Assembly: GCA_012295275.1 (NCBI GenBank) | Contig: CM022667.1 | Span: 5,084,001-5,148,000 of the forward strand | DNA from: Chrysomallon squamiferum | Taxonomy: Eukaryota > Animalia > Mollusca | Direction of reading: 5' to 3' | Length of the DNA stretch: 64,000 bases | In this document: piece by piece, positions 25,248 to 37,908 of the stretch | Position numbering within the stretch: position 1 is the stretch's first letter | How the letters are laid out: each line of letters begins with the position of its first letter | Position numbers and translations under genes: made by a program | The notes under the pieces: generated by a model | Told to the model about the DNA's origin: nothing | What the model saw: the letters and a program-made list of their open reading frames with translations, nothing else | Databases searched by the model: none

Positions 25248-28200
25248 TTAAGAGTGTCCTGTCAGTTTGGCTGCGAGCTGTTTTATCTGATTAAACAGAG
25301 AACCGATCTGAGCTTTAAATGGTGCGAAGAACTTGACAGCTTGAAGAGCCACAGCGGCTGTTGTCTTCCCAGCATGCTCCAAAAACTGAAGATAAAAAAA
25401 CACGACATGTTTTAGATGAGTGACGTAGACAGCTGTTAGGTTACACCACTATTAAATAAAACTGTTTTGTTCAGACGTAATTCATCCTGGATTAGTTTTT
25501 CAGTTAAATAATATAGCAACTTGGTAACTGTAGTGTGTGGTTGAGTTTCAGTTACACGACAGCCAGATTACATAATTACATTACAATCACTTTGTCTGGA
25601 TGATGTTGAATTGAATTCAGTGTTAGAAAGCAGAACACCTGTACGAATCAGGATTAACTCACAGCGCCATTTGTCACTTTAACATAGGAGTACGTCTGGG
25701 TGACTCAGGTATAGTTAGTCCAGTTAGGCTATTGTCTCACACAAACACGCATGGATGACTCTCAACTAAAACGTTCTTCTATCAGATCTGAATAACGCGT
25801 CTCTCTTAACGGTTTAGACTGTCAGGTCAGGTGATTTTAAATTAAATTAACTGTACTCACTGTATGTGCGAGTGCTTTCAGATTGTCGATAGTTGGTGTG
25901 AAGTGAGAGGTGGCTGATGAAATGAGGTTACCGAGGAAAGGTTTCAAACTGCTGAATGAGCTGGTCTCTAAACCCAGCGTGTCGACTACAGTGTTCTTCA
26001 GTCCACTCAGCAGATCCAATACCAGACCTCGCTTGTGAACACGAAGCATCTGTAAAATATCATTTTACATTACATAGCACATCTAAACCTTCAACTAAAT
26101 GATGACATAGCACAGACCTCGCTTGTGAACACGAAGCATCTGTAAAATATCATTTTACATTACATAGCACATCTAAACCTTCAACTAAATGATGACATAG
26201 CACAGACCTCGCTTGTGAACACGAAGCATCTGTAAAATAACATTTTACTTCATATACCACAAATAAACCTTTAACTAAATGATGACATAGCACAGACCTC
26301 GCTTGTGAACACGAAGCATCTGTCAAATAACATTTTACTTCATATACCACAAATAAACCTTTAACTAAACGATGACATAGCACAGACCTCGCTTGTGAAC
26401 ACGAAGCATCTGTAAAATAACATTTTACATTACATAGCACAACTAAACCTTCAACTAAAATGACATGTCACAGACCTCGCTTGTGAACACGAAGCATCTG
26501 TAAAATAACATTTTACATTATATAGCACAACCAAACCTTCAGCTAAATGATGACATGTCACAGACCTTGCTTGTGAACATGGAAGCATCTGTGAAATAAC
26601 ATTTTACGTTACCCTCTACAGTTAAACACTAAATCAACCAAACAGTGAACTCCACTGACTCAGTTCCTCAATAAAGAAACGTGTGCCTACCTTTGATAGT
26701 GCTTTTGGAATTATACTTTCAAAAAGTTTGCCAACGTCGAGGTCGAAGATATTATTTTCTGTAAATTAATAAATGGATAACATTGATATGTGCATAAACC
26801 ACAGATTCACAAGTACACACATATATCTAATCTATCTTCCTGTCTATATCTCTATTCATATGTATATATATGTATGTATTTTATAGTAATAATAATAATA
26901 ATAAAAACCACATTCTCAGACATACAGAGACAAAACACAGGATAGTCACGTGAGGGATATTGCTTACTTTCCATGTGTGAAATGACTGCTTTGACGTCCT
27001 CGACGATTCTGTGAACAACTTCCTTGATGTCGTTCTCACCGTTTAGAACTTTGCTGGTCACCGTCTGCATCCCTTTGACTAAAGTGTTTTTCACCTGTTA
27101 AATATCAGTTCAAAATCTGTACGTGTCAGTTATAGGAAAAACTTTATGTTAGTTAATGACAATGATGATGATTACGATGAAGATCATGATGATGATGATG
27201 ATGATACTACTACTAATAATAACGTTAGTAAATTTATATAAAAAAAATTGTTTATAACTTATAAAAGAATTGTATGGAAATAGATTTGAATGTAATAAAC
27301 TAACCTTTAGCAGAATGTGTGAGTGTAATTGTATATTTGTGTGTGTTAACTCTCTATGACAGTCATAAAACTGTGAAACTAACCAGCTCTGCAGCGTGGG
27401 CAGCAGCCTTCACGATGTCAACGACGTGGTTAAGTTCATCTTTGACATGAGCAGTGAAGATTTCACCCCTGTTTGAAAGACAAAACACTCAGAGATAACA
27501 ACTGTCTGTCTGTTAGACTAGTGAAACATCAGCTGTCATAAAATAGTTTCTAGTGAAAAAGTATGGATTACTCCTACAACAGTCAAAGAACGGGTTACTC
27601 CTACAGAAGGTGAGAAAACTGATTTAAGAAACAGAAAAATATATACTATATCTTCAGTTATTACATAGTTACAGAATGTTCAGAAATAATAATGTAATCA
27701 AAATATGAAAATACCACCCATCTCTCTCTCTCTCTCTGTCTGTCTGTCTGTCTCTCTCTCTCTCTCTCTCTCTCTCTCTCTCTCTCTCTCTCTCTCTCTC
27801 TCTCTCTCTCTCTCTCTCTCTCTCTCTCTCTCTCTCTCTGTCTGTCTCTCTCAATATATATAATATAATGTAATGCGATTTGATCTAATGGATTATAATA
27901 ATATAGTACAATAAAACAGAGTATAGTATTTTATGTCTGTACTAATGTACTGACGTATACTCACACACACTCACGCACACACACACACACACACACATGC
28001 ACACACACTTATACACATATATACTCATACACATATATACGGATGTGATATTAATTTATTTTAATTCTGTAATTACAATAAAAATAAAACCAAAATCTTA
28101 CGCCTCTCGTTTGCCTAAAGCTGGAACAGAAAAGAAATATCAACTAGTGAAACAGTCATAAAGTAATATATATATATATATATATAGATAATATATCTAT

Positions 28201-37200: not shown

Positions 37201-37908
37201 CTTCATACGTACATACATACATACATACGATTATCAAATTGTAATTGTATCCCAATAAATTGAAGACTATGAGAGATTATTGGAAAAACTGACTATGTAT
37301 GACCAATACTTACGTTGTTTAATCATTTCTTCTAAAGTCGCATTTAAAAAAGAAGAAAGAACAAAATAAGGAAATACATTTAAAATTAGAAATAAAAATG
37401 TACGTATGTGAGGAGAAAAACTGATCTCCAAAATAGTAGGAAAATGAAAAAGTAAAGAGTAAAAGTTTTATGGAATAGTAATTTCTGCTCTAGTGTTGAA
37501 TTGTTAGGCGAATTATGTGTATATGTGCATATGTACAATTGTGAGTAAATATATGTGTTTATATATATATGTGTGTATGTGTGTGTGTGTGTATTTTTAT
37601 GAACGCGTGTATGTGATTTTGTGTTTGATGTAATACTAATAGTAATAATAAATGTACTACAACTACTAGTACTACTACTAATAGCAATAGTAATAATAAT
37701 AATAGTAATAATGTTTACACTAATTCCAATACAAATACTAATATTTATACTAATACAAATACTAATACTGTTACGGCTACTATTACTACTACTGCTACTA
37801 TTAATAATAATGATAATAATAAATCTTACGCAGTTTGTCTAAATTGTAGTTGTCCAGCAGAAGACAACTGGCAGCAGAGACAAAAGCGAAGAGGATAAGA
37901 AGTTTCAT
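25248..37908 (-). CDS. Uncharacterised secreted preproprotein with a microexon-encoded variable region, GKR and KR sites and two Cys-free helical domains (copy A, intact)
   Basis: Signal exon 37908-37830 (MKLLILFAFVSAASC-LLLDNYNLDKL); 14 phase 1-1 microexons between 37331 and 29082; 19-nt exon 28120-28102 (PLGKRE); then 27468-27384 (GEIFTAHVKDELNHVVDIVKAAAHAAEL), 27094-26968, 26758-26691, 26049-25861 (MLRVHKR-GLVLDLLSGLKNTVVDTLG...), 25385-25248 (FLEHAGK...QIKQLAAKLTGHS*). All phases join without a stop. AATAAA at ~25178-25183. Confidence 0.8.
26023..26610 (-). repeat. ~90-bp tandem repeat (7 units) duplicating the splice acceptor and first codons (MLRVHKRGL) of an exon
   Basis: CAGACCTCGCTTGTGAAC recurs at 26023, 26113, 26203, 26293, 26383, 26471 and 26561. 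The paralog has only 2 units (47669, 47759). Confidence 0.9.
29082..37331 (-). other. Microexon array with 14 symmetric exons
   Basis: 37331-37314 (18), 36839-36822 (18), 36137-36123 (15), 35659-35642 (18), 35194-35177 (18), 34395-34369 (27), 33675-33649 (27), 33185-33168 (18), 32507-32493 (15), 32021-32010 (12), 31566-31549 (18), 30957-30943 (15), 30083-30057 (27), 29108-29082 (27). Each has a polypyrimidine tract plus AG and a GTAAG/GTGAG donor. Confidence 0.78.

Follow-up and report, generated by a model that had tools for sequence, protein, structure and literature searches.

The window, a stretch of 64,000 nucleotides, harbors two tandem paralogues on the minus strand (Table 1). The model of gene 1 comprises 21 coding exons with 975 coding nucleotides and leads from a signal-peptide exon via 14 microexon candidates to a short exon with a Gly-Lys-Arg site (LGKR exon), which is followed by five larger exons. 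The microexons account for 273 of the 975 nucleotides (28%; 30% including the LGKR exon). The signal peptide, as judged from its sequence, has a hydrophobic 16-residue start (GRAVY 2.11 over residues 1-16), and standard annotation would probably overlook the N-terminal exons. The host, initially taken for a probable cephalopod, is a gastropod: its TPX2 is closest to that of Gigantopelta aegis, which is indicative of a neomphaline vent snail. Gene 2, a deleted microexon of type C and the homology of the C-terminal 200 aa to limpet and abalone proteins are additions to the initial annotation.

Table 1. Positions of the features of gene 1 and gene 2 within the window
Feature	Position	Strand	Remarks
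5'-UTR exon (probable) and proximal promoter	38481..38600	-	inferred; donor GTACGT after 38481; kept in both gene copies
Signal-peptide exon	37830..37917	-	ATG at 37908; phase 1 end; coding part identical in gene 2
Microexon 1	37314..37331	-	type A, 18 nt; without ancestral acceptor AG, internal AG assumed
Microexon 2	36822..36839	-	type B, 18 nt
Microexon 3	36123..36137	-	type A, 15 nt; ancestral AG gone
Microexon 4	35642..35659	-	type B, 18 nt
Microexon 5	35177..35194	-	type B, 18 nt
Microexon 6	34369..34395	-	type A, 27 nt
Microexon 7	33649..33675	-	type A, 27 nt; 18 or 15 nt possible via in-frame internal AGs
Microexon 8	33168..33185	-	type B, 18 nt; identical to microexon 2 including 80 nt flank per side
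Microexon 9	32493..32507	-	type A, 15 nt; ancestral AG gone
Microexon 10	32010..32021	-	type B, 12 nt; sister of microexon 4, which is 6 nt longer
Microexon 11	31549..31566	-	type B, 18 nt; exon identical to microexon 5
Microexon 12	30943..30957	-	type A, 15 nt; ancestral AG lost via different substitution
Microexon 13	30057..30083	-	type A, 27 nt
Microexon 14	29082..29108	-	type A, 27 nt; GTGAG donor; differs from LGKR-joined exon in three RNA contigs
Remnant acceptor of type-C (15-nt) microexon	28480..28483	-	exon removed by 107-nt deletion relative to gene 2
LGKR exon, 19 nt	28102..28120	-	codes L-G-K-R-E (Gly-dibasic site); phase 1 to 2; joined to 27468 in RNA
Exon 3, helical domain 1	27384..27468	-	RNA joints and homology
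Exon 4, helical domain 1	26968..27094	-	RNA joints and homology
Exon 5, helical domain 1 end	26691..26758	-	RNA joints
Exon 6, second KR site and helical domain 2	25861..26049	-	90-bp tandem repeat upstream with six extra acceptor copies
Exon 7, helical domain 2 end and stop	25248..25385	-	70% identity to Haliotis rubra over 43 aa
Gene 2, paralogue	46869..51354	-	same signal exon; near-identical 3' exons; 14 kb from gene 1
Gene 2 microexons A, B and C	50731-50757, 50386-50403, 50069-50083	-	three, compared with 14 in gene 1
Gene 2 KR exon	49381-49399	-	LIKR replaces LGKR

The 14 microexons are predicted exon candidates at the DNA level. All of them were retrieved at the minus-strand positions that had been proposed for them; they share phase 1-1, AG acceptors and GTAAG donors, with GTGAG in the last one. 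Their full inclusion reproduces the peptide given in the initial annotation (...NLDKL QEMIKQ QTLQHL EEILK HPLPDP HPFPVP TTTPQPTLY PSLEELIKQ QTLQHL EETLK HPDP HPFPVP IPTSY PTFPRPILV SDLHNLITN PL-GKR), and the further claim that skipping never creates a junction stop holds for all 16,384 combinations (0 stops), because merely one of the 15 upstream exon ends is a T. These combinations correspond to 16,128 distinct predicted peptides. An in-frame AG and a pyrimidine tract accompany 14 of the 26 minus-strand GTRAG donors of the interval and none of the 15 on the plus strand. Local dinucleotide shuffles (300 replicates) yielded a mean of 0.37 and a maximum of 3 such exons compared with the 14 real ones, a control whose exon filter was chosen after the exons were known; furthermore, the microexons are copies of two cassettes and therefore do not represent 14 independent events. 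In four of the 14 exons (37331, 36137, 32507 and 30957), the acceptor AG that the 27-nt cassette had ancestrally is gone, and their lengths depend on an internal in-frame AG that is assumed as a fallback. Most internal AGs of the microexons are in frame.

The gene is expressed, and RNA contigs contain its 3' exons and the LGKR exon in spliced form. Our comparison is based on assembled contigs covering the 3' exons from four of five runs, all from one study (the weakest run, X4, was left out). The joints between exons 6 and 7, 5 and 6, and 3 and 4 are present in three of three runs and the joint between exons 4 and 5 in two of them, with a matching 11-nt loose end in the third; run X5 shows none of these joints. 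The LGKR exon is represented with all 19 nucleotides in the contig loose ends of the three runs. What is supported of the initial proposal is an expressed gene that combines a signal peptide, a series of symmetric candidate microexons and a Gly-Lys-Arg motif. A direct joint between the signal exon and the LGKR exon, named there as the observation that would speak against the array, occurs in none of the three contigs: the exon preceding LGKR in RNA is an intervening exon and not the signal exon.

A hint of the identity of this intervening exon comes from the 11 nt that precede LGKR in the contigs. They have no match within two mismatches among the 14 exons of the array, and the three samples carry three different 11-mers coding for F-N-P, F-N-P and F-T-P, which fits alleles or paralogues. 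Their best match is the end of the type-C exon of gene 2, with a modest agreement of 7, 7 and 6 of 11 positions and a tie with microexon 1 in run X3. Because these 11 nt differ from microexon 14, a different allele or a third paralogue may be the source of the sampled transcripts, and part of the gene 1 array may be silent. One contig, from run X3, extends 321 nt upstream of exon 3 (255 in the loose-end table). Without the UTR exon, full inclusion would give 380 nt, and the signal exon together with the gene 2 microexons and the KR exon would give 167 nt, a comparison that hinges on the length of the UTR exon.

The origin of the array is recorded in its introns. DNA-level gain, loss and divergence of microexons are evident from the comparison of its units, which are tandemly duplicated copies of two exon-intron cassettes with a 27-nt exon (type A) and an 18-nt exon (type B), respectively. 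A block of about 3.6 kb has recently been duplicated within the array, two cassettes (34095, 30440) retain the type-B pre-acceptor motif and have lost the exon, and the type-C exon still present in gene 2 has been deleted from gene 1. We considered that part of the array might be an assembly artefact, i.e. a haplotype or a repeat expansion that was joined twice, given the identity of microexons 2 and 8 together with their flanks, the near-identity of microexons 5 and 11, and a single-base gap where exon 4 of gene 2 begins, which is absent from RNA run X5. However, the duplicated blocks are just 84-88% identical overall and differ in their exons, and unique cassettes are located outside of them, which makes an artefact highly improbable.

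The divergence of the units bears on a second alternative, in which the array is a nearly neutral accordion, i.e. a spacer or pro-peptide under loose constraint, with cassettes that duplicate within introns rich in microsatellites; many of the 14 candidates would be decaying pseudoexons, and their variety would lack a function. The four mutated acceptors, the loss of two type-B exons and the type-C exon, the small set of microexons in gene 2 and the RNA that differs from microexon 14 are in agreement with this scenario. Duplication of a similar kind at exon 6 has generated six non-coding acceptor copies, and the locus thus duplicates whatever the function. However, the donors of the type-A units are kept in nine of nine cases although the exon bodies diverge, all nine are free of stops (P = 0.043 under a neutral star model; with P = 0.90, the corresponding type-B test tells nothing), none of the units contains a stop codon, and all length changes among the cassette exons are multiples of three. 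Moreover, both routes of AG loss leave an in-frame AG to fall back on, and non-synonymous differences between type-A exons exceed the synonymous ones instead of equalling them (pN 0.45, pS 0.29, from few, non-independent and uncorrected pairs). We regard the accordion as unlikely.

A different reading, close to that of the initial annotation, is a true MEG-like system (named after the micro-exon genes of Schistosoma) in which each animal derives many N-terminal peptides from one allele by skipping exons combinatorially and by using alternative in-frame acceptors. Exons as short as these (12-27 nt) are easily skipped; the 14 symmetric exons without junction stops, the large number of possible peptides and the mostly in-frame internal AGs would suit such a mechanism, and two contigs break off upstream of the LGKR exon, at distances of 58 and 85 nt, as expected for branching, although low depth or a 34-nt exact repeat in the full-inclusion mRNA may also account for these ends. 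An excess of pN over pS is described for some MEGs as well, according to passages of PMC4350168. On the other hand, skipping was not observed in the RNA contigs, in which 11 nt upstream of LGKR are visible, and the unbroken 302 nt upstream of the LGKR exon in one contig (depth about 6) suggest a dominant form; contigs drop rare isoforms, and hence an absence of skipping cannot be read from these data. The microexon donors are no weaker than those of the constitutive exons, as the 14 of them and the five donors further downstream all match the consensus at 5-7 of 9 positions. Phase symmetry is what an exon needs to survive tandem duplication, as known from exon-shuffling theory, and the duplication visible here is by itself enough to explain the symmetry of the microexons. 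Combinatorial skipping as the main source of variety is a tentative option of rather low probability.

The C-terminal part of about 200 aa consists of two amphipathic helical domains of about 100 aa each (pI 6.3 and 9.5), whose mean hydrophobic moments were reached by 0 of 1000 shuffles for domain 1 and 2 of 1000 for domain 2; BLASTP detected no similarity between the two. Homologues were first found with a single exon as query among 1.84 billion proteins (E 1e-6 and 4e-5). They are the uncharacterised proteins XP_046555551.1 of Haliotis rubra (LOC124264804; 38% identity over 208 columns) and XP_050398117.2 of Patella vulgata (LOC126816026; 34% over 207 columns), and pairwise BLASTP across both helical domains gave E-values of 7e-44 and 2e-36. 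Dibasic sites are located at the domain borders, with LGKR/LGKR and HKR/NKR in the comparison with Patella and SRR in Haliotis. A third relative (P0018) contains at least six repeats of domain 2; its Pfam matches, confined to short sections of unrelated models, were discarded. The homology over both domains and the dibasic border sites place the gene, on sequence comparison, in an uncharacterised family of gastropod helical proteins delimited by KR sites. The N-terminal half of the Patella protein harbors KR-delimited amphipathic peptides at the position of the microexon segment and does not significantly resemble the Pro-rich segment (best E 0.19).

Two of the five protein-search matches, P0015 (4450 aa, 38 short stretches) and the Maridesulfovibrio repeat protein P0019, were set aside as repeat-driven chance matches. 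Word-index protein searches with exons 6 and 4 remained without a match, and a Gigantopelta homologue was not found in the protein searches. The atlas search returned nothing usable for exon 6 and, with the Patella protein, a single weak cluster from rotifers (0.79), and a metagenome scan with exon 6 produced 593 pattern matches, none of which was confirmed. Pfam revealed no family above cut-off for the window exons or for the Haliotis and Patella proteins, the PDB sequence search had no match, and neither the peptide motifs nor TPX2 had a match in the published snail tables searched. Weak matches to Styelin (E 0.056) and a frog antimicrobial peptide (E 0.3) fell under the cut-off and were set aside, as was the Foldseek list (best E 0.2) derived from low-confidence structure models (pLDDT 38 and 46). 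The venom role entertained initially has no support, with neither a cysteine framework nor a toxin homologue present. The predicted N-terminal peptide (103 aa) is Pro-rich with a pI of 5.5 and 6 K/R compared with 12 D/E; it is unlike typical Pro-rich antimicrobial peptides because it is not cationic.

We favor, with moderate confidence, an expressed gastropod gene for a likely secreted precursor cut at Lys-Arg sites, whose Pro-rich N-terminus is predicted from a run of phase-1 microexons and varies via cassette duplication, deletion and fast divergence in the DNA. The 14 candidates would be real exons and mostly included, since symmetric phase-1 exons come or go without a break of the frame; some skipping is probable as a second layer on top of the DNA-level variation. 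Cleavage by a prohormone convertase at GKR and HKR would then release a variable, weakly acidic Pro-rich peptide, C-terminally amidated in its LGKR forms, and the two helical domains. The product is likely to be a dibasic-cleaved secreted precursor with a variable Pro-rich peptide ahead of conserved membrane- or lipid-binding helices. More speculatively, these helices may bind membranes or lipid on the surface of an epithelium or the gut, where defence against microbes or their control would be the most likely role, with the fast-changing N-terminal peptide serving as a pro-piece or as a recognition peptide under diversifying pressure. A bolder version would be a MEG-like system that evolved independently in a vent snail, itself a possible host of chemosynthetic symbionts. 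The cassette array, combinatorial splicing and alternative in-frame acceptors would together supply amidated Pro-rich peptides by the thousand, carried on a membrane-active helical scaffold, and these peptides would recognise or control bacterial symbionts. The NCR peptides of legumes offer a comparison for symbiont control; we consider this version distinctly unlikely.

Schistosoma MEGs combine a signal peptide with 10-20 short symmetric exons, long introns, tandem copies, fast non-synonymous change and exon duplication, as outlined in passages of PMC10526429, PMC4350168 and PMC8293314, and the latter two describe this architecture there as confined to flatworms. The initial annotation had likened gene 1 to them, and the layout stands: an N-terminal signal peptide (judged from sequence) precedes a run of symmetric exons in the MEG range (about 10-20 exons of at most 36 nt), with 14 candidates of 12-27 nt in gene 1 and three in gene 2, and tandem paralogues and a raised non-synonymous divergence among the cassettes (small sample) are likewise present. 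However, MEG coding sequences are mostly microexonic, a defining feature that gene 1 misses because most of its coding sequence lies in other exons, and it carries a conserved 200-aa helical part after dibasic sites. Its host is a gastropod, its named relatives are gastropod proteins, and homology to MEG families was not found. Gene 1 is hence MEG-like in layout, but not a MEG. Skipping is documented in MEGs, whereas in gene 1 it is a prediction; the oyster Cg-Prp provides a parallel for exon skipping.

The myticalins of Mytilus resemble the gene in another respect. Parts of PMC12294457 portray them as a multigene family that varies between individuals, with a signal peptide, a hypervariable and often Pro-rich peptide, a Gly before the dibasic site and a C-terminal extension; they are cationic, are encoded by three exons and end in an anionic low-complexity tail. 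The Gly and dibasic site after a variable peptide recur as LGKR in gene 1 and in three of three RNA contigs, with LIKR in gene 2. In contrast, the N-terminal peptide described here is weakly acidic and spread over up to 15 exons, the model has 21 coding exons, and the tail consists of two conserved amphipathic domains; no myticalin was among the protein-search matches. Among the gastropod relatives, Patella keeps LGKR and the second dibasic site, but its N-terminus differs from the Pro-rich segment. A microexon array of this kind in a mollusc was not reported in the literature searched, which left most subscription journals out of reach. The locus marks an unstudied secreted family common to limpets, abalone and the host snail. 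Unlike in old MEGs, the introns of gene 1 still record the cassette-by-cassette growth of the array, and a paralogue with three microexons adjoins for comparison, so that the origin of microexon arrays can be tested directly.

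Reading of the minus strand from 27,000 to 38,900 and a scan for AG-exon-GTRAG units recovered all 14 tiny exons that the initial annotation had placed in the secreted-precursor gene (gene 1), and the phase 1-1 symmetry it had claimed is borne out for each of them. In silico splicing of the signal exon, the 14 microexons, the 19-nt LGKR exon and five larger 3' exons yields an open protein of 325 aa. An in-frame acceptor filter was passed by 14 of the 26 minus-strand donors versus none of the 15 plus-strand donors of the same interval, and 300 shuffles gave a mean of 0.37 and a maximum of 3; this filter was defined post hoc and applied to duplicated exons, thus the control overstates the independent evidence. 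The predicted freedom from junction stops also held (0 of 16,384 skipping combinations), which is weak support since only one of the 15 upstream exon ends is T. The 14 exons are probably for the most part included in transcripts.

The array is made up of two cassettes, i.e. exons with their flanking introns, namely type A (27 nt, eight copies) and type B (18 nt, six copies). A block of about 3.6 kb with the order A-B-A-B-B is duplicated at 84-88% identity, and microexon 2 is identical to microexon 8 including the flanks. It is highly improbable that part of the array is an artefact of the assembly. The ancestral AG has disappeared from four A copies via two different substitutions, and each of these copies harbors an in-frame internal AG; two cassettes retain the type-B pre-acceptor motif without an exon. 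The paralogous gene 2 (46.9-51.4 kb) contains a single exon each of type A, type B and a third type, C (15 nt). It belongs to a segmental duplication in which a nicotinic-receptor-like gene is included as well. Type C is absent from gene 1 owing to a 107-nt deletion. Exon gain, exon loss and fast divergence are directly documented at the DNA level. Based on small, uncorrected and non-independent counts, pN and pS amount to 0.45 and 0.29 for nine A units and to 0.27 and 0.02 for five B units (excluding microexon 8, the copy of 2, and the 12-nt microexon 10). Between the 3' exons of the two genes, in contrast to the microexons, only 16 of 202 codons differ, and eight of these differences are synonymous. 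All A and B units are free of stops, with a neutral star-model probability of 0.043 (A) and 0.90 (B), and the explanation of the array as a neutral, decaying spacer appears rather unlikely. Type-A and type-B microexons share a pyrimidine-rich core ending in CAG, which codes for Phe-Pro, resembles a 3' splice site and is a source of in-frame fallback acceptors; both types may descend from one common ancestor.

According to exon-shuffling theory, phase symmetry is a condition for the survival of such exon duplications, and symmetry alone therefore implies no skipping; true combinatorial splicing of the microexons is a tentative alternative. The 3' region is partly present in five public runs, four of which are recorded as RNA and stem from a single study. 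Contigs of three RNA runs (X1-X3) and of X5, a run of unrecorded kind that covers introns, were aligned to 25,200-27,950. The exon joints 6-7, 5-6 and 3-4 are each present in all three RNA runs and joint 4-5 in two of them; X5 exhibits no exon joint across this interval. The loose end past exon 3 corresponds letter for letter to the LGKR exon in all three RNA contigs. Direct splicing of the signal exon to the LGKR exon, the outcome that the initial annotation had set against its microexons, is not seen, as the preceding 11 nt differ from the signal exon in all three. They do not match microexon 14 either, differ among the three samples (translating to F-N-P, F-N-P and F-T-P) and best match the end of the 15-nt exon of gene 2 (7, 7 and 6 of 11 positions; in the third sample, microexon 1 scores equally well). 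The contigs reach 77, 104 and 321 nt beyond exon 3 in the upstream direction (255 for the last in the table of loose ends), versus an expected 167 nt for signal exon, gene 2 microexons and KR exon and 380 nt for full inclusion, both without the UTR exon. Unless the UTR exon measures about 150 nt or more, the longest contig thus points to transcripts with over three microexons.

In the X1-X3 contigs, exon 4 (26968-27094) mixes letters of gene 1 and gene 2, and exon 6 (25861-26049) has further differences; in exons 5 and 7 the two genes match at 100%. These patterns point to gene conversion, additional paralogues or chimeric contigs. RNA contigs across the exon-6 repeat of gene 1 read as its last copy, and X5 depth is zero over part of the repeat. 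Of the six extra acceptor copies, five lead to a stop within 33 codons. The one-base gap in exon 4 of gene 2 is not seen among the listed gene-2-like X5 contigs; either a rare allele or an error of the assembly could account for it.

The signal peptide is followed by a 103-aa segment, GKR, a 100-aa domain, KR and a 101-aa domain. The variable 103-aa segment (19 Pro, no Cys, pI 5.5) is not more amphipathic than shuffles, 197 of 1000 of which reach it; the 100-aa and 101-aa domains are reached by 0 and 2 of 1000. The product is somewhat more probably than otherwise secreted as a precursor that is cut at dibasic sites, processing and function being read from motifs and amphipathicity only. The expected cleavage products are a Pro-rich peptide of variable sequence, which would carry an amide in LGKR forms, and two conserved helical domains. 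These domains would associate with membranes or lipid, probably where host and microbes meet, and cassette turnover in the genome would be the chief source of variation. A search with exon 6 against 1.84 billion proteins gave five matches including three relatives, namely Haliotis rubra LOC124264804 (38% identity, 208 columns), Patella vulgata LOC126816026 (34%, 207 columns) and the unnamed P0018, which aligns as six repeats of helical domain 2. The P. vulgata protein retains LGKR and harbors KR-delimited amphipathic peptides at the place of the microexon segment. P0018 is a 765-aa secreted protein with at least six domain-2 repeats and without dibasic sites between them, i.e. a polyprotein use of this domain in another organism. 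The searches yielded neither a curated family nor a solved relative, nor a reliable fold.

A "probable cephalopod" had been proposed as the source, but the TPX2 matches comprise no cephalopod. In the C-terminal exon of TPX2, the closest match is Gigantopelta aegis with 82% identity, and none of 13 others exceeds 66%; over all aligned stretches, the values are 61.5% (788 columns) versus 53-56% in four other molluscs. The GC content of the window is 31.9%; according to an excerpt of PMC7736800, the genome value is 34.5% in Chrysomallon squamiferum versus 37.5% in G. aegis. Judged from these comparisons, the source most likely belongs to the neomphaline vent snails and is a species different from G. 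aegis, with the scaly-foot snail as a candidate. The nicotinic-receptor-like copies alternate with the two secreted-protein genes in a tail-to-tail arrangement; a 35-bp tandem repeat lies ahead of each copy, and the copy at 23174 shows an apparent frameshift. The Ig-like membrane protein has a short cytoplasmic tail and is a possible immune or adhesion receptor.

Neighboring genes, repeats and sequence irregularities in the window
Feature	Position	Strand	Description
TPX2 gene	1417-8665	plus	
LDL-receptor-class-A gene	11932-13166	minus	small membrane protein
11-bp tandem repeat	12258-12790		LDL-receptor-class-A gene region
Nicotinic-acetylcholine-receptor-like gene	16040-18562, 21699-24330, 42409-46270	plus	compact, three copies; Pfam LBD and transmembrane
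90-bp tandem repeat, gene 1	26023-26612	minus	seven copies of exon-6 acceptor and first codons
90-bp tandem repeat, gene 2	47695-47786	minus	two copies of exon-6 acceptor and first codons
Missing base, gene 2 exon 4	48293	minus	frame shifted relative to gene 1
Ig-like membrane protein gene	54300-62800	minus	at least five divergent Ig-like domains, small linker exons

Gene 1 is a real, expressed and unusual gene. Myticalins, as far as described in an excerpt of PMC12294457, follow a similar precursor logic, but gene 1 deviates from them in charge and gene structure. No comparable mollusc case was found in the literature searched on microexons of molluscs or gastropods, symmetric-exon skipping and tandem exon duplication. 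With the micro-exon genes (MEGs) of Schistosoma, as characterized in excerpts of PMC10526429, PMC4350168 and PMC8293314, gene 1 shares the signal, the run of symmetric microexons, tandem copies and fast change. It differs from them in that microexons account for 28% of its coding sequence, in the absence of homology and in its gastropod host. Gene 1 is therefore MEG-like in layout and not a member of the MEG class, and it represents an architecture of a known kind outside the lineage in which this was described.
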